Source of the DNA: a virus
DNA length: 20,717 nucleotides
Reading direction: 5' to 3' (one strand)
Virus genome (UHGV): UHGV-1961940
The translations under genes and the position numbers were made by a program. A model generated the notes under the pieces. That model made no database searches, was not told the origin of the DNA, and saw only the letters and a program-made list of their open reading frames with translations. Positions 11,521 through 19,053 of the stretch are shown one piece after another (positions within the stretch are counted from its first letter, which is position 1; every line of letters begins with the position of its first letter).

Positions 11521-11548
11521 AAATAGAAAATCCCCGCCGAAGCGGGGG
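11521..11548 (-). terminator. Rho-independent terminator (minus strand)
   Basis: Minus-strand RNA CCCCGC-UUCG-GCGGGG stem-loop followed by UUUUCUAUUU. Lies between the stop of the upstream ORF (11561) and the lysin RBS. Confidence 0.6.
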
Positions 11549-11560
11549 AGGTCTTAGAAA

Positions 11561-11943
11561 TTAATCGTAGTGTGCCAAAATCTCTCCATCGTTGCAAGTT
11601 CCCTCTACAAAGTTATGAAGATTCATGCACTCATCTTGATAGAAGAATTTACCGCTTTTCAGCCGTAGGCCAAACAACTCCGCATCTCCACGATGGCAAG
11701 CCTCTACAAGTTCATAGATTTCATACGGCAACTCTCCGTCGTCATGGAAGAATCCAGCCTTATCGTTGACATAAATGAAGAAATAATCACTGCTATCGCA
11801 AGCGTCCAATATTTTAAACCAGACTTCATCTACATCTTTTTCTCGGATATCGATCACGCAAGTGGAACTGCATTCGTACTCCTTCTCCGGCTCCTCGGTC
11901 AATACCACCAGGTAGTTTCCCCGCTTACCTACTTTAGCCATAC
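11561..11943 (-). CDS. hypothetical protein (~126 aa from ATG 11943; track ORF extends to 11989)
   Basis: ATG at 11943 is preceded by 'AAGGGGG' and avoids the 38-nt overlap with the upstream gene. No motifs recognised. Confidence 0.5.
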
Positions 11944-11951
11944 AACCCCCC

Positions 11952-13136
11952 TTAAGCTTTAGCCAAAATGGCGCTAAACTCTTCACCAAACTCTTTTACA
12001 ATCTTCATCAGGTTTGGGTATGCTTTGATCAGCTGAGCAACAATCTTGTCACGCCCTTTACCGATAAGCAAGGCATTTCCTAAGGCATTAGGTTTCATCA
12101 TCGCCATAAAGACTGAGAATACAAAATCTCGGTTCTCGTCCTTGAAGTTTTCCCAAAGGAAATCGAGGAAGTTTGCCACGCAGCTGACAAGATCTTCGTC
12201 TGAGATACTTGCATTTTCCATCATATTGCGAATAGCGATACAACCTTCAGATCCAAGAATCCACAAAATGTCTGGCTGCTTAGGACCTACGTATTCTTTG
12301 CAGCCACCTGCCATAATCCGACCGATTTCCGGTAAATTACGTTTCTTGGTGTGGTAAGTCCAGATCTCTACCGCTGCAGTGTGACCAATAGCACCTTGTA
12401 GAAGAACACGGGCCATAGCGTCAGAAATAATACCGCTGTCAAAATCGTGCAAGATGTCAGATGCAGCAACCCAAGATCGTGGTGTGGCAAAAGATGGACA
12501 ATTAATCTCAGCCATAGCCTCATAATTATCAATAGCTGATGGAACTCTTTTCAGATACCCAATTACAGAGGAGTGAACCCCGTTGAGGAATGCGTAGTCC
12601 TCAATAAACACCTCTGCATTGCTTGTAACCTCTACAATGATAAAACGGTTAGCCAGAGGGGCTTCGAGCGCCGAAAGAACCGCACCATCTGTAGAACGGT
12701 TACCCGCAGCCACAAAAACAGAACCCTTAGGGAATGCATAGGTGCCGCACTTGTGGTCAAGCATAATTTGCATTGCAACCTTTTGCAGGTAGTTATCTGC
12801 ATGAGTGAGCTCATCCAGAAAGATAATTCCGCTCCAGTCAGGATCCGCAGGCCAAAATTCTGGAATTGCAAACACTGTACGTGTAGTTCCATCCGCTTCT
12901 ACAGGGATAGGTAGCCCAGATAAGTCGGCAGGATCTTTATCTGACAGTCGCACGTCAACAAGGTTGTCATCTCGCTCACCGAACATATTATCAGCGATCT
13001 GCTTCATCACCTGGCTTTTACCCACACCCATTGGTCCCAAAATTAGGACAGATCGGCTATGACGTTGGGCAAACTGAATAATAGCTGGCAACTCACGGAC
13101 AGTGATTTGACCACTTTCGAATACGTTTCTTGACAT
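11952..13136 (-). CDS. MoxR-like AAA+ ATPase (AAA_5 / CbbQ-NorQ-CobS-like)
   Basis: Walker A 'LILGPMGVGKSQ', Walker B 'IIFLDELTHAD', and a sensor-1 region 'VFVAAGNRSTDGA...LEAPLANRF' that resembles the MoxR 'ATxNP...L..A..DRF' pattern. Confidence 0.8.
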   Translation of the reverse strand: MSRNVFESGQITVRELPAIIQFAQRHSRSVLILGPMGVGKSQVMKQIADNMFGERDDNLVDVRLSDKDPADLSGLPIPVEADGTTRTVFAIPEFWPADPDWSGIIFLDELTHADNYLQKVAMQIMLDHKCGTYAFPKGSVFVAAGNRSTDGAVLSALEAPLANRFIIVEVTSNAEVFIEDYAFLNGVHSSVIGYLKRVPSAIDNYEAMAEINCPSFATPRSWVAASDILHDFDSGIISDAMARVLLQGAIGHTAAVEIWTYHTKKRNLPEIGRIMAGGCKEYVGPKQPDILWILGSEGCIAIRNMMENASISDEDLVSCVANFLDFLWENFKDENRDFVFSVFMAMMKPNALGNALLIGKGRDKIVAQLIKAYPNLMKIVKEFGEEFSAILAKA

Positions 13137-13405
13137 TAGTAAAAGTCCTCTACTTGTGTGTAAGTGTTTTCAAAGTTTTCCAAAACAGATATCACATCGA
13201 ATCTGTCAATATCATACGTGACTCTCCAGTTGTACGCAACCCTTTCTGCTGTTGCCTCTTCTGGCGCTAGTCGTCTGCTGGCATAAAAGAGTGTTGGAGT
13301 ACACTTTCTTGCTTGCCCTCTAACTTTCCCATAATAATATCTGTGAATATCTTTGTCAAAATTTAACTCTTTTTCTGCACGAAGTTCATATTGCTGGTAT
13401 AACAT
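13136..13405 (-). CDS. hypothetical protein (89 aa)
   Basis: Track ORF; its stop overlaps the AAA+ ATPase start. Confidence 0.4.
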   Translation of the reverse strand: MLYQQYELRAEKELNFDKDIHRYYYGKVRGQARKCTPTLFYASRRLAPEEATAERVAYNWRVTYDIDRFDVISVLENFENTYTQVEDFY

Positions 13406-13449
13406 CTCTACTACTCCTTAAGCAGCATCCTTGCCGCCATTCCTGCCCA

Positions 13450-13830
13450 CTAAAATGCAGTCCGAATCCAGACAAGGTTCTTATCTGCCCAATCATAGAG
13501 GCAAGTCATTGCACTATTGAATTGCTCACACGGAGGATAATCTTCTTCCATCTGGCGCATAGCAGAGCCTTGTGGGTAAAGCTCCCGTGCTGCAAACCAC
13601 GCATCGTAGTCATCAACGGTGTCGAAGTAGTATACAACATCCTCTAACTCAGGATCGAACTTTGAACTATCAGGATCCAGTTGTTCAGGGAACTTGGAGC
13701 GTAACTTGCCAGCCACAATACTTGCCAACTCGCTAACATGCTTATTGTCCCACTCCACTAGCTTCCCGTCTTCAGTGATGCGTCCTAACCACTGATCATG
13801 AAGGTCAACTGTTGTCTTCCACTGAGCCAT
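13450..13830 (-). CDS. hypothetical protein (126 aa), acidic and Trp-rich
   Basis: Track ORF in the operon orientation. Confidence 0.45.
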   Translation of the reverse strand: MAQWKTTVDLHDQWLGRITEDGKLVEWDNKHVSELASIVAGKLRSKFPEQLDPDSSKFDPELEDVVYYFDTVDDYDAWFAARELYPQGSAMRQMEEDYPPCEQFNSAMTCLYDWADKNLVWIRTAF

Positions 13831-13832
13831 TA

Positions 13833-14090
13833 TCAGTCCACCTCTTCTTCTCGTTGTAGTTCAAGATACCCGTAGGTCTGGACATCTTGAAGGGTGTGGA
13901 ACTCCCCCTCTGCCGCTAAGGCACGAACAACTTGGCACAAAACCTTATGAGGAACTTCATCCAAACCTAGATTCAGTGCAGGAAACACCTTATCTAAGTC
14001 AACAAAATAAACGAACTGTAGCTCACCAGCTTCAAAAGGTGTATCTTCAATAAACATCTTCTCGGCATTAGTCAAGATCTGCACTTTCAT
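13833..14090 (-). CDS. hypothetical protein (85 aa), acidic C-terminus
   Basis: Track ORF; ATGA start/stop overlap with the upstream gene at 14090. Confidence 0.45.
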   Translation of the reverse strand: MKVQILTNAEKMFIEDTPFEAGELQFVYFVDLDKVFPALNLGLDEVPHKVLCQVVRALAAEGEFHTLQDVQTYGYLELQREEEVD

Positions 14091-14446
14091 TATTCTACCT
14101 CCTCTTCTTTTTCTTCGGCATTAGTTTCATGGCTACCCCACTCGGGAGTTTCCACCTCGATAGTAAACTCACGCACTACACGGTAATTGCCCATGAAGCG
14201 CTCTACTTCGTCAAGGCTTATGGAGAGGCCATTGGCAACCAGGTCTGCAGCACCCTCTTCTACCAGGTAGTCCAGATTGGCTTCCAGAGCCTCAGGTTCA
14301 AACCCTGTCAATGCAATCAGATAACCTTCCCCTTCATCAGGGAGGACAATACAGCCCAATTGATTTTCTTTAAAAAGGCAGTGACCATCATTATTGATTG
14401 GGTGTTCATTGCAGTAAATAGCTGCACGATAAGTAACTTTAGACAT
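14090..14446 (-). CDS. hypothetical acidic protein beginning MSKVTYRA (118 aa from ATG 14446; track ORF starts at TTG 14467)
   Basis: AAGGAG RBS 9 nt upstream of the ATG at 14444-14446, and an in-frame TGA two codons upstream of the TTG. The start region lies inside the 29-bp inverted repeat. Confidence 0.5.
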   Translation of the reverse strand: MSKVTYRAAIYCNEHPINNDGHCLFKENQLGCIVLPDEGEGYLIALTGFEPEALEANLDYLVEEGAADLVANGLSISLDEVERFMGNYRVVREFTIEVETPEWGSHETNAEEKEEEVE

Positions 14447-14451
14447 CGGTA
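14423..14451. repeat. Left copy of a perfect 29-bp inverted repeat (reverse complement of 16285-16313)
   Basis: Checked base by base: the reverse complement of 14423-14451 is 'taccgatgtctaaagttacttatcgtgca', identical to 16285-16313. Both flanks mismatch immediately outside the 29 bp. Confidence 0.9.
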
Positions 14452-14459
14452 AGGTCTCC

Positions 14460-14738
14460 TTAGGCAATTGTCATTTTACATTCTTGAAATTTTAACACAA
14501 GACGGTAATTGTGTCTAGTGTCTAAAAAGATTTTTTCAACCATCAGGCACACGGTATAACCGTCCATCTTGTTGACAACAAAATCTCCAGGATGAGGGAG
14601 GATGTCTCCCGGATTGGGGAAACATAGTCCACTCAGAAAGGCATCGTCAGTGGTGGACTTAATAGATTTCCACACACTGTCTGCCTGAACATGTTCACCG
14701 ACGTAATATACATTACCACATGCCTTCATCATAGTCAA
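14460..14738 (-). CDS. hypothetical protein (92 aa)
   Basis: Track ORF; ATGA overlap with the upstream 299-aa gene. Its TAA stop overlaps the RBS of the next gene. Confidence 0.45.
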   Translation of the reverse strand: MTMMKACGNVYYVGEHVQADSVWKSIKSTTDDAFLSGLCFPNPGDILPHPGDFVVNKMDGYTVCLMVEKIFLDTRHNYRLVLKFQECKMTIA

Positions 14739-15634
14739 ACCCTCGCATAAATTAAACTTGTATCAGTATACTTCTTTAATGGGTAAATATCCTGTCCATA
14801 GATGCAATCATTAAACACCTCATCTACCCAAAGGCTACACTTATATCCCATCATTTCTAAAACACCCATCTCTTCTTCGGTAAACTTATCACCGCTCTTG
14901 CAAGATGTCAATACCTCATTCTGAACTCTTGCTACCTCGAAGCGGTTATTGGCAATATCGCTATTGGCGATCAAATACTCACCTAGAGGGTGTGCGGCAT
15001 TAAAGATGCACAGTGGACGGCTGACGTAATAGTCTCCAGGTGTATAAAAATTGTTGAGGTCTTTCACTAGAACATTCTTATCAGTCACTTCATTTATAAC
15101 ATCATGCATATCGCACATCTTTATATGTTTGAGGATTCCATCCCCCATCACAAAATAAAAACTTGCTGAGACACTTTCGGCATAGATCTTACTAGATCCG
15201 TTGTAGTTGTATTTTACTCGGATGCTAACGGGGGTTTTTCCTGTCGCGTTAGCCATCATCCAAAGAAATGGCAGCTCATACTTCTCCTCTGAGGAAACAA
15301 AAGGTGAGGTAGCCAGAGATCGAAAACCTCCAGAGAAGTTGAAAGTTACAGAACCGCTCCGGCGGTATGATACCGCGTATTCTACTTTTATATCGACATA
15401 CCCATTGGAATAGGTGTGTCCTTCATTATCTAAATATGTCCACTTATCAGACCCAGATACCAATCTACGCTCAATAACCTTCATCACTATAGGAATTAAT
15501 GGGTTGGTACAAACCGCTTTTGAAGTAGCTTTATCATCTAAAGCCTCGTAAATTGCAGAAAGGATGTCCCCAGCTGAAAGATTGGTTGTTATGTCCTGTT
15601 TCCACCGCGTACTAAAACTGTTAAGATTTGCCAT
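14735..15634 (-). CDS. hypothetical protein (299 aa), first gene of the leftward operon
   Basis: AGGAG RBS 9 nt upstream of the ATG at 15634, and a near-consensus promoter directly upstream. No motifs recognised. Confidence 0.6.
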   Translation of the reverse strand: MANLNSFSTRWKQDITTNLSAGDILSAIYEALDDKATSKAVCTNPLIPIVMKVIERRLVSGSDKWTYLDNEGHTYSNGYVDIKVEYAVSYRRSGSVTFNFSGGFRSLATSPFVSSEEKYELPFLWMMANATGKTPVSIRVKYNYNGSSKIYAESVSASFYFVMGDGILKHIKMCDMHDVINEVTDKNVLVKDLNNFYTPGDYYVSRPLCIFNAAHPLGEYLIANSDIANNRFEVARVQNEVLTSCKSGDKFTEEEMGVLEMMGYKCSLWVDEVFNDCIYGQDIYPLKKYTDTSLIYARV

Positions 15635-15674
15635 AAGTAAGTGCTCCTATGTTAGTTTTCTTTCGAATGGGTGC

Positions 15675-15703
15675 ACTATATTGTGGAGTTAGAGTAAAGT
15701 CAA
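15675..15703 (-). promoter_or_regulatory. Sigma70/SigA-type promoter for the leftward operon (-35 TTGACT, 17-nt spacer, -10 TATAGT)
   Basis: Minus-strand reading 'TTGACT ttactctaactccacaa TATAGT': -35 at 15698-15703, -10 at 15675-15680, about 40 nt upstream of the ATG at 15634. Confidence 0.45.
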
Positions 15704-15721
15704 CACGTTTTTGATGTTGAC
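15699..15721. promoter_or_regulatory. Palindrome GTCAACA-N9-TGTTGAC spanning back-to-back -35 elements (candidate operator)
   Basis: Perfect 7-bp inverted arms at 15699-15705 and 15715-15721. The left arm contains the leftward -35; the right arm contains TTGACA (15717-22), which with 17-nt spacing to 'TACGAT' (15740-45) gives a possible rightward promoter. Confidence 0.4.
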
Positions 15722-16754
15722 ATCTGTTGAGACAATTGATACGATTTCTTCACTTACAGAGCACGAGAGACGACTCATGAATCTTGAAAAATATTATACA
15801 CCAGAAGAGTTAGAGCGCTTGCTCAAAAAATATAGACGCAAACAGAATAACGCACGGAAACGAGATATAGAGTTCGACCTGTCATGGGAAGAATACCTCC
15901 TATTTGGTAAAAAACTTTTAGGAGATGGAGTATGCGACTATACCCTTATACCTTTTGACATGCACACAGATGAAAACGGGCTGGGGAATCCTTTCTACCC
16001 ATCCCTGGAGCGGATAGATGATGAAGGTCCTTATGCGGTTGATAACTGTTGTGTGGTGGGATTGAGATGCAACTCTCTAAAGGACTGTCTGGTAGATAAA
16101 AAGACTGCAGTCTTGATTAAAGACGAAACTGATCGAAAAATTGTCCAGCAGATGATGCTCCACCTGAGCGAAGAGCGTATGGAGAAATTGAAAGGTGATT
16201 ATACTTTTGAAGATTTCATCTTGCAATATGGAACGGAAGAGGATAAACTAGCACTCTTTGACGAAGAAGAGGAGGAAGATATGCTACCGATGTCTAAAGT
16301 TACTTATCGTGCACCCAAGAAGCACATTTCCGACATTGTAAACGAGCCTATCACAGAAGAGATTGAAGAAATGACGCAACAGGTGCATGAAGAGGAAAAA
16401 GAGACTCAGGAGGTCGAAGAGGAGCTTACAGAAGAGGTTCCTGCACTACCTGATGATGTTGAGATTGCCAAAGCTTACACTTTCTATTGTCAAACGTTCT
16501 ACGATGTAGGTATGAAAGTTGATCTGTCGTTCAGCCAATTTAAGAGTTCGTATATTCGCAAATGCTGTGCTTTAACTGGTGAACGTCTTGGAGCTGGACT
16601 TAAACCCCTGTTGGTGACCGACTGGAATAAAGGTTTCACTAAAGGAAACTTTATGGTAGTATCTCCAATTATGAAGAAAGCTATGACAGATCTTATGAAG
16701 ACCACCCGCATGACAATGACCGAGTTGGCAGGTATTTTCAAACACGTTAAATAA
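15711..16754 (+). CDS. Hypothetical protein (347 aa by track): basic/Cys N-terminal domain with possible degenerate HNH/His-Me-finger-like motif, acidic linker, distinct C-terminal domain; start uncertain
   Basis: 'YRRKQNNARKRDIEFDLSWEEY...CDYTLIPF...PSLERIDDEGPYAVDNCCVVGLRCNSLKD' loosely resembles small phage HNH-type endonuclease domains, but with Arg where the catalytic His would be. Acidic runs 'DEEEEED', 'EEEKETQEVEEELTEE'. If the rightward promoter at 15717-45 is real, translation more likely starts at ATG 15777. An internal RBS (GGAGG) plus ATG at 16281/16290 coincides with the 29-bp repeat. Confidence 0.55.
   Translation: MMLTSVETIDTISSLTEHERRLMNLEKYYTPEELERLLKKYRRKQNNARKRDIEFDLSWEEYLLFGKKLLGDGVCDYTLIPFDMHTDENGLGNPFYPSLERIDDEGPYAVDNCCVVGLRCNSLKDCLVDKKTAVLIKDETDRKIVQQMMLHLSEERMEKLKGDYTFEDFILQYGTEEDKLALFDEEEEEDMLPMSKVTYRAPKKHISDIVNEPITEEIEEMTQQVHEEEKETQEVEEELTEEVPALPDDVEIAKAYTFYCQTFYDVGMKVDLSFSQFKSSYIRKCCALTGERLGAGLKPLLVTDWNKGFTKGNFMVVSPIMKKAMTDLMKTTRMTMTELAGIFKHVK
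16285..16313. repeat. Right copy of the perfect 29-bp inverted repeat (see 14423-14451)
   Basis: 'taccgATGtctaaagttacttatcgtgca' read directly; in frame it encodes (L)PMSKVTYRA inside the 347-aa ORF. Confidence 0.9.
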
Positions 16755-16759
16755 TGACA

Positions 16760-16774
16760 GGGGCCAATGGCCCC
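16760..16774 (+). other. Palindromic hairpin GGGGCCA-a-TGGCCCC between the 347-aa gene stop and the VWA gene
   Basis: Perfect 7-nt arms read directly, followed by a T-rich 'ttctggagtttta'. It contains the ATG at 16767, suggesting the real start of the next gene is ATG 16788. Confidence 0.3.
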
Positions 16775-18248
16775 TTCTGGAGTTTTAATGGATAGCAGAA
16801 GTTCAGAAATCATTGCCTCGCAGAAAGATGATGCCCTGAGAATGTTGCAGGCTGCACGTATGTATCTCCTTGAAAAGCTGCCGTTTTATGGCACACTACT
16901 GTCAGGGTTGCAGTTCGTAGAAAACCACACATGGTGCTCCACCATGGCAACCGACCATAAACGCATCTATTACAGTCCTGAGTTCATTATGGGATTGGCT
17001 GATGAACGCAAGGCTATTCTTAAGGCTTCTCTAACTGACGAGCAGTTTGAGATGGCTGAAGTTTTCTATTCTCCAAAATCTGTGAAAGAGGTGGCCTTCC
17101 TTCTGTCACATGAGGTGGGGCATATTATCTGTGATCACCTAGTCCGTGGTAAAAGCTTTGAGCCGGAACTGTTCAATATTGCTTGTGATCACGTTATCAA
17201 CACAGGCCTTGTGGTTGACTTTAGCAAACCTCCTTGTGTTTTCTTCCCGAAGGGGAAAAGCACTACGTTCATGAAAGGTAAGCCTTTTGGCTTCTTAGCC
17301 AGCTGCTACTGCGACATGAAGTTTCATGGATGGATTGCTGAGAACGTTTATGCAGTTCTTGATAAGCAAAGAGATCAGAATAACGGTAAAAGTAAGAACG
17401 GTAAAGGTGAGAACTCTCAAAGTGATAAGCGACAAACCGATGATCACATGAGTGGGAACGGTGGCACCAGTGATAATCTTGGAAAGGCTATGGGGTATGA
17501 TCAGCCACAACCTGTAATCAGCCAATCTGATAAAGATCAGGCCATGCAGGACTCTGGTGATATGCTGGAGGCAGCAATGCAAGCGTCCGGAGGCCGTTGC
17601 CCTGAGGCGGTGCGTGAGTTTGTCAAGAACAGAGGTAAGCCTGTAATCAACTATATAGACATCATTAAGCAACGTATGTTGTCTAAAAGAAAGGCCGAAC
17701 TGACCTACAGAAAACCTGGTCGCCGATCTGGGTCTTTGACCAGCACAATGCGAAAAGTTGGGGCTATAAACAAGAACCAGCACGTTATTGTTCCTGGTCG
17801 TAATCCGGAAAACACTATAGATATTGTGGTGGCTTTAGACGTTTCTGGCTCGATCTCTCAAAGAACTTTAAAGAAAATGTTCAATGAAATCACCGGATTG
17901 TGCAATCTGTATAAAGAGTTTAAGGTTACAATGTTCTGTTGGTCAACTGAGGTTGGAGAGGTTAAAGTATACACTCGCGGCAACATAGACGAGATGGTCA
18001 ACTATGAGGTCCACTCAACATGGGGCACAACAGCTGCTTGCGTGTTCGAGTATCTGGATGCCAACATACCTAATGCAAAAGATGTCATCGTCCTGACCGA
18101 CCTATACTTTGAGCATAACTTTGAACAAAAGGTTGTTGACAACAAGTGGAAAAAGTACGATACTCTATGGGTCCTCACTGAGGGGTATAATAAAAATTAT
18201 ATCCCGAGCTTTGGGAAAACTGTGGAATTAATCGAGTACGCTAAGTAA
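16767..18248 (+). CDS. VWA-domain protein with N-terminal putative HExxH metallopeptidase domain (DUF2201-like architecture); likely starts at ATG 16788
   Basis: Zinc-metallopeptidase motif 'LSHEVGHIICDHL'. VWA MIDAS motif 'VVALDVSGSIS' in the C-terminal half. GGAG 5 nt upstream of ATG 16788. Confidence 0.7.
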   Translation: MAPSGVLMDSRSSEIIASQKDDALRMLQAARMYLLEKLPFYGTLLSGLQFVENHTWCSTMATDHKRIYYSPEFIMGLADERKAILKASLTDEQFEMAEVFYSPKSVKEVAFLLSHEVGHIICDHLVRGKSFEPELFNIACDHVINTGLVVDFSKPPCVFFPKGKSTTFMKGKPFGFLASCYCDMKFHGWIAENVYAVLDKQRDQNNGKSKNGKGENSQSDKRQTDDHMSGNGGTSDNLGKAMGYDQPQPVISQSDKDQAMQDSGDMLEAAMQASGGRCPEAVREFVKNRGKPVINYIDIIKQRMLSKRKAELTYRKPGRRSGSLTSTMRKVGAINKNQHVIVPGRNPENTIDIVVALDVSGSISQRTLKKMFNEITGLCNLYKEFKVTMFCWSTEVGEVKVYTRGNIDEMVNYEVHSTWGTTAACVFEYLDANIPNAKDVIVLTDLYFEHNFEQKVVDNKWKKYDTLWVLTEGYNKNYIPSFGKTVELIEYAK

Positions 18249-18263
18249 GAGAGGAGGTTATTT

Positions 18264-18527
18264 ATGGCAACAGAGTTAAAATTTGCATCAAACCGTAAAA
18301 CTAAGAAGTATCTGTCCTCAGTAGCTCCAGGCACTGTGGTGATGTTTGTTGATGAACTTGGGGATGTGAATACAGCACTTGTTGTAAAATCACATCCTGC
18401 AAACATATATGTTGGGGTATTTGACCTGTTCAGAAAGGTGTTTGTAGAACTGCCTCACAGTTTGGTTGTTACAGAAATGGATGCCTGCATAGAAATTCTT
18501 GGCGAAGTTATGGTGGAGGAACAATAA
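18264..18527 (+). CDS. Small protein, paralog family member A (87 aa)
   Basis: RBS 'GAGGAGG' upstream. Shares 'MAT...F.S..K.KK...GTVV...VK...FDL...LP...VTE.D..I.ILGE' with the next ORF. Confidence 0.6.
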   Translation: MATELKFASNRKTKKYLSSVAPGTVVMFVDELGDVNTALVVKSHPANIYVGVFDLFRKVFVELPHSLVVTEMDACIEILGEVMVEEQ

Positions 18528-18790
18528 TGGCTACCAGCATTGTATTCAATTCTAAGGTGAAGAACAAAAAGCGTGCAGACAGTTTTCCGTGTGGGACCGT
18601 GGTAAGTTGCGACGGAGACGGCATTCAAAACATAGTTATGATTGTCAAAACAGGAGAACATTGTGTGTGGGGGTTCGATTTAGAAAATAATGAGTTGTAC
18701 GATCTGCCGCCAAACATGAAAGTTACAGAGCTTGACACCAAAATTACCATCCTTGGAGAGACAAGCTATTCAAAAGAAGGAGGAGAATAA
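18527..18790 (+). CDS. Small protein, paralog family member B (87 aa)
   Basis: Start overlaps the preceding stop; GGAGG RBS. About one third identical to member A by eye. Confidence 0.6.
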   Translation: MATSIVFNSKVKNKKRADSFPCGTVVSCDGDGIQNIVMIVKTGEHCVWGFDLENNELYDLPPNMKVTELDTKITILGETSYSKEGGE

Positions 18791-19053
18791 TGACCACAAA
18801 AATCACTATCGCAGAACCGAAAGCTAACACTCAGCCTATCGAAAAGTTTAAGTACGGTGAGGTGGTAACATTCACACCAGATAATGAAGATGCTAAGATT
18901 TTCGCAATGGTCACAGCTGAGTGGATGTGTGACAACACCACACAGGTTCTGCGTTTTGACACCTATCTTACCGATGAAATCAGGAACGACAAGATTGTGA
19001 CTGGTGTGGATACTGAGATTGTTTTCTACAAGAGCTTTTTAGAGGGTTTCTGA
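18790..19053 (+). CDS. Small protein, paralog family member C (87 aa)
   Basis: Same length and start/stop overlap; AGGAGG RBS. Shares the 'G.VV...V...FD...VT..D..I' pattern more distantly. Confidence 0.55.
   Translation: MTTKITIAEPKANTQPIEKFKYGEVVTFTPDNEDAKIFAMVTAEWMCDNTTQVLRFDTYLTDEIRNDKIVTGVDTEIVFYKSFLEGF

Follow-up and report, generated by a model that had tools for sequence, protein, structure and literature searches.

Six promoter-proximal genes of an rV5-like coliphage as candidate accessory genes of a predicted early operon

The subject of this analysis is a cluster of six genes at positions 13136-15634, minus strand, of a 20,717-nucleotide (nt) stretch of the virus genome UHGV-1961940; the whole stretch is referred to as the window. 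With slightly better than even confidence, the cluster is read here as part of an early, sigma-70-driven operon that encodes dispensable accessory proteins, which would bind or modulate host components in particular hosts or conditions and would be neither enzymes nor virion parts. We infer both the early timing and the host-interaction function of the six proteins. The accessory reading is favoured because the neighbouring genes are host-directed (a MoxR-like ATPase acting against the defence system DS-28, an Srd-like anti-sigma gene and rIIA/rIIB), because the cluster combines high nonsynonymous divergence (dN) at saturated synonymous divergence (dS) with gene turnover in the metagenomic relative L009 and in other genera, and because its gene of 89 amino acids (aa) is dimorphic between nearly identical flanks. 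The six genes are known, annotated ORFans with published essentiality data, and the analysis gave no sign of a new kind of system. The analysis is in part corrective: the widely propagated name 'alpha-1,3-fucosyltransferase' is unfounded, and in this genome acidity is no evidence of DNA mimicry. Should any of the six proteins prove to be a host-specific counter-defence factor, this would help to explain which hosts rV5-like phages can infect; such phages are used against pathogenic E. coli.

Gene content, constraint and junctions of the cluster

Positions 13000-15800 matched Escherichia phage Murica best in megablast (99.9% identity at 100% query coverage; 120 phage records matched), with pangalan, CM1 and CarlMeissner/Bas48 as further top matches. 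This near-identity assigns the window to an rV5-like myovirus, a coliphage of the Vequintavirus murica type. By its sequence the region corresponds to rV5 genes 10 to 5, already catalogued and syntenic gene for gene with rV5-like phages, and annotations of the six genes are carried by more than 100 phage records. The products of rV5 genes 10-5 (ABI79081-ABI79076) and of bas54_0057-0062 in phage Bas54 (MaxBurger) are 95-100% identical to those of the window, and gene order and promoter are the same. The difference from rV5 is minor and consists in a 29-nt patch in the Srd-like gene of the murica-type window, which rV5 lacks. The original prediction had placed the open reading frames (ORFs) correctly, all six of them on the minus strand:

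14735-15634, minus strand: 299-aa gene with ATG start (rV5 gene 10, bas54_0057), matched end to end by phrog_12338
14460-14732, minus strand: 90-aa gene (rV5 gene 9, bas54_0058), matched end to end by phrog_12847
14090-14446, minus strand: 118-aa gene (rV5 gene 8, bas54_0059), matched end to end by phrog_12908
13833-14090, minus strand: 85-aa gene (rV5 gene 7, bas54_0060), matched end to end by phrog_13124
13450-13830, minus strand: 126-aa gene (rV5 gene 6, bas54_0061), matched end to end by phrog_6318
13136-13405, minus strand: 89-aa gene (rV5 gene 5, bas54_0062), matched end to end by phrog_13164

For two genes the start was set inside the mechanical ORF. The ORF at 14460-14738 encodes 92 aa from a TTG, and an ATG at 14732 with a Shine-Dalgarno sequence gives the 90 aa of the GenBank records; likewise, the ORF at 14090-14467 encodes 125 aa from a TTG, and an ATG at 14446 with a Shine-Dalgarno sequence gives 118 aa, as in GenBank. 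No match to Pfam (E ≤ 0.1), NCBIfam or PADLOC was obtained for any of the six proteins, PHROGs returned only their own families of unknown function, and sequence searches of the PDB with all six yielded nothing better than E 0.06.

Comparison with the diverged congener Aya (Nei-Gojobori method) gave dN/dS ratios of 0.09 for the 299-aa gene, 0.08 for the 90-aa gene, 0.11 for both the 118-aa and the 85-aa gene, 0.02 for the 126-aa gene and 0.20 for the 89-aa gene, with dS between 0.12 and 0.71 over the six genes. Over the comparisons made, the ratios ranged from 0.04 to 0.09 (299 aa), 0.07 to 0.09 (90 aa), 0.11 to 0.13 (118 aa), 0.11 to 0.21 (85 aa) and 0.02 to 0.08 (126 aa). Judged by these substitution patterns, the six genes are genuine and under purifying selection. 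In L009, five of the six reading frames are kept at 46-58% amino-acid identity (the 118-aa homologue at 53%); this relative lacks the 90-aa gene and has an additional gene of 101 aa. At the saturated dS of this comparison, dN was 0.08 for the MoxR-like ATPase gene and 0.14 for the VWA gene on the other side of the promoter region, and reached 0.35-0.52 in the cluster genes, i.e. four to six times the MoxR value.

These data bear on the alternative that the ORFs are non-functional relics, over-called frames, or virion or injected proteins. The lack of known domains would fit it, as would the dispensability of all six genes in transposon sequencing (Tn-seq). Against relics stand dN/dS ratios of 0.02-0.20 with many synonymous changes and the retention of the frames in L009 even at 46-58% amino-acid identity. 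Against a virion role stands the gene table of the rV5 paper, which lists genes 5-10 without product or homologue and marks other genes as detected by mass spectrometry of the virion, none of them among genes 5-10. We regard this alternative as very improbable.

The genes are tightly packed, if not throughout. All junctions had been described as overlapping or abutting, which holds for four of the six: 299/90 (TGA-CT-ATG, 2-nt gap), 118/85 (TAATG, 1-nt overlap), 85/126 (TGA-TA-ATG, 2-nt gap) and 89/MoxR (TAATG, a 1-nt overlap of the 89-aa stop with the MoxR start). It does not hold for 90/118, with a 13-nt gap and the stop codon inside TAAGGAG, or for 126/89, with a gap of 44 nt. The acidic C-termini noted earlier are present (EEKEEEVE and REEEVD), but their codons are the Shine-Dalgarno sequences of the following genes: AAGAAGAGGAGGTAGAATAATG and AAGAAGAGGTGGACTGATAATG, which form direct repeat D2, encode the tails and at the same time serve the genes behind them as ribosome-binding sites, with the cores GAGGAGG and GAGGTGG within the acidic-tail codons. 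Tight stop/start signals at four of the six junctions, together with Shine-Dalgarno sequences in the last codons of the preceding gene, would link the translation of neighbouring genes.

Predicted promoter, operon layout and the question of DNA mimicry

The cluster is the promoter-proximal part of a longer leftward run, which is shown here with its flanking features:

15675-15703, minus strand: sigma-70-type promoter TTGACT-17 nt-TATAGT (10/12 in a consensus scan), about 40 nt upstream of the 299-aa gene
about 15635-15776: divergent promoter region between the leftward and rightward runs (annotated records)
minus strand: leftward run of rV5 genes 10, 9, 8, 7, 6, 5, 4 (MoxR-like ATPase) and 3, then a hairpin terminator (annotated records)
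11952-13136, minus strand: MoxR-like AAA+ ATPase (rV5 gene 4, bas54_0063; phrog_1297 and weak AAA Pfam matches)
11561-11941, minus strand: rV5 gene 3, upstream of the terminator hairpin (annotated records)
11532-11547, minus strand: terminator-like hairpin CCCCGC-TTCG-GCGGGG plus T-run (scan; ARNold terminator annotated at the same place in phage Gotham)
minus strand, beyond the terminator: SleB-like hydrolase, rIIA, rIIB and helicase (annotated records)
15777-18248, plus strand: rightward run of the Srd-like 'anti-sigma' gene 11 and the DUF2201 metallopeptidase-VWA gene 12 (annotated records)
15777-16754, plus strand: Srd-like 'anti-sigma' gene (PHROG Srd / sigma-70 decoy matches; rV5 paper)
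16767-18248, plus strand: DUF2201 metallopeptidase-VWA gene (Pfam DUF2201_N and DUF2201)

A leftward promoter ahead of the 299-aa gene had been proposed and is borne out as a predicted site by its consensus match and by its conservation across five lineages. The -35 and -10 elements and the upstream A-tract are kept in all five and the spacer is variable (rV5, Aya and the metagenomic relatives L009 and L008 are the named ones). The rV5 paper predicts its promoter P010 (Table S4) at the same site, corresponding to 15703-15675 of the window. In the scan as a whole, promoter-like sites did not exceed their number in shuffled sequences (15 vs 12.1 ± 3.6). The GC skew switches sign exactly at the divergent promoter region, where the cluster diverges from the Srd-like anti-sigma gene. 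The layout expected of an early operon is found, with a sigma-70-type promoter directly upstream of the cluster and the same strand for the cluster and the downstream rIIA/rIIB and helicase genes.

In the model drawn from this layout, the host sigma-70 RNA polymerase would start at the conserved P10 promoter, and the transcript would run through the six genes, the MoxR-like ATPase gene and gene 3 to the hairpin at 11532-11547, which is the likely 3' end of the operon segment. Its products would be six soluble, phage-only proteins under purifying selection, and dispensable, according to the literature, on K-12 and on one uropathogenic isolate. The claim of a translationally coupled early module stands insofar as the cluster is the promoter-proximal part of a predicted polycistronic unit with a host-type promoter, next to early or host-takeover genes.

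The arrangement resembles the early operons of T4 and T5. In T4 (immediate-early genes) and T5 (pre-early genes), host promoters drive tightly joined series of small non-essential genes, often with acidic products, close to host-takeover genes. Tight junctions, small non-essential genes and rIIA/rIIB and Srd-like neighbours are shared by the present cluster, for which the promoter is predicted. The difference is that the six genes have no sequence homology to T4 or T5 early proteins (Pfam, PHROGs). According to the rV5 paper, the downstream gene 3 alone has a T5 homologue.

The best sigma-70 match in the 6-kb scan was a different site, TTGACA-17-TATTAT (11/12; 13331-13359, minus strand), inside the 5' end of the 89-aa gene and upstream of MoxR. 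Its conservation within the genus is confounded by coding (F-D-K and Y-Y-Y codons), and the match is poorer in L009. This predicted site could give MoxR a transcript of its own, and the absence of polar effects from insertions upstream, in the transposon data considered below, would agree with this.

The small ORFs had been described as acidic and had been proposed as DNA mimics with an anti-defence or host-takeover role. Acidity is strong in three of the five, and near neutral values were obtained for the 90- and 89-aa proteins. Net charges are -20 (118 aa), -11 (85 aa) and -13 (126 aa), with isoelectric points (pI) of 4.2-4.3 and the 118-aa protein as the most acidic at 4.2; the 90-, 89- and 299-aa proteins carry -1, -2 and -6. 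DNA mimicry is conceivable only for the three acidic proteins, one or more of which might block restriction-modification or another DNA-binding defence early in infection; the positive evidence for this is their charge. Together with their small size, it is in the range of the Ocr/ArdA/Acr-type mimics. The operon position behind a conserved sigma-70-type promoter and the genus-restricted occurrence and relatively fast evolution of the candidate genes are further points in favour.

Charge does not discriminate here, since half of the small proteins in the window (9 of 18) have a pI below 4.6, and a hand count over the first part of the rV5 gene table gave a pI of 4.5 or less for about 11 of 38 small proteins. 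Against this background, three acidic proteins out of five are unremarkable. The two acidic tails are by-products of downstream ribosome-binding sites. Unlike their likeness to Ocr/ArdA-type anti-restriction proteins in size and charge, there is no likeness in sequence: none of the six proteins belongs to a known mimic family by Pfam or PDB sequence search, the Ocr and ArdA families included. Disruption of the genes was costless in Tn-seq on K-12 and CFE311.

A fold-level comparison was made for the 126-aa protein. The AlphaFold2 model (45 sequences; predicted local distance difference test, pLDDT, 94.3; predicted template modelling score 0.86) is a helical bundle, in which five helices are preceded by short strands at the N-terminus and followed by one strand at the C-terminus. 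The protein is rich in Trp, and its conserved positions are mainly Trp and other aromatic residues. Foldseek found nothing in the PDB at E ≤ 0.001, a fold search of BFVD returned two unnamed relatives, and the matches obtained were generic helical bundles only. With no informative structural neighbour in PDB or BFVD, no likeness to a known DNA mimic is seen for this protein, and in the model neither a fold nor a charge pattern resembling B-form DNA is apparent. The mimic proposal thus found no support beyond charge, and given the non-discriminating charge, the tails derived from Shine-Dalgarno sequences, the lack of homologues, the outcome of the fold comparison and the results of Tn-seq, we rate it as distinctly unlikely.

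Transposon sequencing and the link to the MoxR-like ATPase

The essentiality data come from the HIDEN-SEQ preprint (10.1101/2025.11.20.689424), which reports phage transposon sequencing on the Vequintavirus Bas54. Its genes bas54_0057-0062 are the orthologues of the six genes, and the 126-aa protein is 100% identical between Bas54 and the window. On K-12, all six orthologues fell into the class 'Non-essential', and insertions covered 89-100% of their TA sites. Data for a host other than K-12 are those for the uropathogenic E. coli isolate CFE311; the stored CFE303 sheet appears to be a duplicate (identical header and compared rows). On CFE311 the MoxR gene bas54_0063 was lost (log2 fold change -7.23, q 0) and the orthologue of the metallopeptidase-VWA gene was depleted (-2.20, q 0.009). 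MoxR and the unrelated bas54_0140 were needed to overcome DS-28, a predicted defence system of CFE311 (10.1101/2025.11.20.689424).

In the window, the MoxR and DUF2201 metallopeptidase-VWA genes flank the divergent promoter from opposite sides. The VWA-metallopeptidase is presumably the partner of MoxR, and the depletion of both Bas54 orthologues on CFE311 is consistent with a two-part MoxR/VWA counter-defence machine against DS-28. Certrevirus CR3 and phage A7_1 have, immediately after MoxR, a gene of about 515 aa, which we took as the VWA partner from its size and position; both lack a homologue of the 126-aa gene.

Within the cluster, two layers seem to be present. The first, fast-evolving and genus-specific, comprises the N-terminal region of the 299-aa protein and the 90-, 118- and 85-aa genes. 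By tblastn, the 299-, 118-, 85-, 90- and 89-aa proteins were found in Vequintavirus records only, in about 116-118 of them (116 for the 90-aa, 117 for the 118-aa and 118 for the 85-aa protein). In Seunavirus, Avunavirus and a Klebsiella relative the slot is filled by different small genes, one of which encodes a weak HD-domain protein.

The second layer is the 126-aa gene, which clearly moves with MoxR, the counter-defence ATPase, across genera, together with a weakly supported 89-aa partner. The 126-aa protein was found by tblastn in 180 records at 27-100% identity and by profile search in 47 clusters. Its gene lies always just upstream of MoxR, namely in Vequintavirus, Seunavirus, Avunavirus and a Klebsiella Vequintavirinae-like phage (taxonomy unassigned in the record), and within the genus it is as constrained as MoxR (dN/dS 0.02). 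The 89-aa protein probably has a homologue (hhalign probability 73%, E 3e-5) in an 80-aa protein whose gene occupies the corresponding place in Seunavirus and Avunavirus. The 'ATPase' label of its family phrog_13164 is unsupported.

The 89-aa gene occurs in two allele classes within the genus, with 34 of 117 records at 60-80% amino-acid identity, unlike the neighbouring MoxR, which is at least 95% identical in all Vequintavirus records. In comparison with phage bov11CS3 the divergence is restricted to 13169-13467. The 89-aa gene and the spacer ahead of it (13136-13467) are a local hotspot of divergence within the genus, where nucleotide identity to bov11CS3 drops to 77-88% as against 95-100% on either side. 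Between the two alleles dN/dS was 0.39, vs 0.01-0.21 in the neighbouring genes. Annotation extends the bov11CS3 allele by 11 codons at its N-terminus.

The 126/89-aa layer may tune or complement the MoxR/VWA counter-defence machinery, a link that the one known MoxR phenotype contradicts. In its strictest form, the 126- and 89-aa proteins would be dedicated adaptors, substrates or regulators of that system, and the other genes unrelated cargo. The position of the 126-aa gene just upstream of MoxR in four lineages, its MoxR-like constraint, the weakly homologous 80-89-aa gene between the two and the overlap of the 89-aa stop with the MoxR start speak for such a role. However, insertions in MoxR were strongly counter-selected on CFE311 and insertions in the 126- and 89-aa orthologues were not (log2 fold changes +0.43 and +0.24; 10.1101/2025.11.20.689424), CR3 and A7_1 have MoxR without a 126-aa homologue, and the Klebsiella phage lacks the 89-aa gene. 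The cluster resembles MoxR AAA+/VWA two-component systems in that it shares a predicted operon with a MoxR-like ATPase and has a VWA gene across the divergent promoter; it differs in that none of the six proteins has an AAA+ (MoxR) or VWA/MIDAS domain in Pfam and in that the conserved pair is unneeded for the known MoxR phenotype. Conserved adjacency is the only link of the two proteins to the system as components. An obligatory MoxR cofactor role of the 126- and 89-aa genes was rejected as the principal explanation because of the CFE311 data and the absence of the two genes from CR3 and A7_1, and the dedicated-partner idea is judged rather unlikely.

A broader possibility, to be taken as tentative and with the chances lying against it, is that the six proteins include at least one new kind of counter-defence or host-takeover factor, acting only in hosts beyond K-12 and CFE311, or that the 126/89-aa pair modulates the specificity of MoxR-VWA. 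The best candidates would be the 118-aa protein with its net charge of -20, the dimorphic 89-aa protein beside the invariant MoxR and the conserved 126-aa helical bundle. As part of this possibility, the pair might retarget MoxR-VWA to different defence systems, the two 89-aa alleles representing different specificities.

Several points weigh against the accessory reading favoured here. None of the six orthologues was depleted on CFE311 (+0.24 to +0.79, the highest value being that of the 118-aa orthologue; 10.1101/2025.11.20.689424), so no host-specific requirement is seen. The six proteins have no homology to characterised host-takeover or anti-defence proteins (Pfam, PHROGs, NCBIfam, PADLOC, PDB). 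About 116-118 Vequintavirus genomes keep the same genes of the cluster in the same order, which sets it apart from typical hypervariable anti-defence islands. A usable structural model was obtained for one of the six proteins, that of 126 aa, and the literature search found no transcriptome, early/late classification, transcription start site or protein-interaction data for rV5-like phages. Other literature mentioning Bas48 or Bas54 (on Avs2, CBASS protease, Aionostat and Zorya/Druantia) contained nothing on these genes.

The 299-aa protein and the divergent region

The first product of the cluster, described earlier as a protein without recognisable motifs, indeed matched nothing in Pfam, NCBIfam, PADLOC or the PDB. 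It is soluble, with a pI of 5.4. Its family is tiny, consisting of five clusters at 90% identity in a word search of 5.8 billion proteins and of two representatives among 1.84e9 proteins in a profile search; the remotest member, 25% identical, is likewise encoded opposite an Srd-like gene. An AlphaFold2 model on the alignment of five sequences reached a pLDDT of 43 and is not usable. The N-terminal part of about 235 aa is an orphan. The C-terminal 55 aa or so (window 14735-14900) match the first operon gene of other Vequintavirinae genera (hhalign probability 92%, E 6e-7; BLAST E about 6e-4). In those genera, the first gene after the divergent promoter encodes 285-370 aa, bears the PHROG label 'thymidylate kinase' and has no Pfam match. 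The pattern F-[ST]-x-E-E-[LM]...E-M-x-G-[YL]-K...L-W-[VL]-D recurs in the C-terminal module of these otherwise unrelated first operon genes (L005-L007, L013, L014), and a common binding partner of the module is possible.

The product name 'putative alpha-1,3-fucosyltransferase' goes back to a GenBank note of 2006 ('similar to carboxyl terminus of Bos taurus fucosyltransferase 9') and is carried by rV5 and dozens of descendant GenBank records; the rV5 paper lists gene 10 without homologue or function. Thymidylate kinase could be argued from the label of the positional counterparts and from a weak match of the 299-aa protein itself to phrog_10920 (E 0.018 over 35 residues). Against both names, Pfam at E ≤ 0.1 returned no glycosyltransferase or kinase family. 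The GT10 profile Glyco_transf_10 was not matched in Pfam or NCBIfam; neither was a P-loop kinase or Thymidylate_kin profile, and the GKT tripeptide of the protein (ATGKTP) is not kept in its homologue P0005. The 'thymidylate kinase' counterparts share only the C-terminal module with the 299-aa family. By these profile searches the two identities are already effectively refuted, and the probability that either applies is close to nil.

A perfect 29-nt inverted repeat flanks the divergent promoter, with its arms at 14423-14451 and 16285-16313, 1.8 kb apart. The first arm covers the start of the 118-aa gene (LPMSKVTYRA), i.e. its first 24 nt and the 5 nt upstream of the ATG, and the second lies in the acidic linker of the Srd-like gene. 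At the corresponding Srd position rV5, JeffSchatz and Aya read DMSPMQDFKNFMADRAAN, and the murica type has therefore gained a short patch copied from the 118-aa gene. Two microhomologies already in place, ACCGATG and ATCGTGCA, border the patch, and in net terms four codons were lost. Inversion across the arms would join the Srd N-terminal domain in frame to the body of the 118-aa protein; the junction predicted for such an inversion of the promoter segment was found in 0 of 118 phage records.

The calls for the start of the Srd-like gene disagree: the ORF list gives TTG at 15711 (347 aa), most records ATG at 15777 (325 aa), and rV5 a product of 311 aa. In RefSeq-style annotation the Srd-like and VWA genes are named 'HNH endonuclease' after PHROG labels, for which Pfam gives no support. 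Further to the right, at 18264-19053, the window carries three tandem, mutually paralogous 87-aa genes, the first two of which share about 39-41% identity with a related copy from other genomes. Their counterpart position in other genera is called 'tail protein' in RefSeq-style annotation, likewise without support. In the Avunavirus phage Av-05 (L014), an annotated Lar-like restriction-alleviation gene at 1141-1344 has the Srd-like gene on one side and the small 'tail protein' gene on the other, and counter-defence cargo is thus present in the divergent early region of a relative. Sixteen MG0656xx records named 'Campylobacter phage' give Campylobacter jejuni as host and share 99% identity with E. 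coli rV5-like phages in this region; probably the host was mislabelled, or the preparations contained a contaminant.

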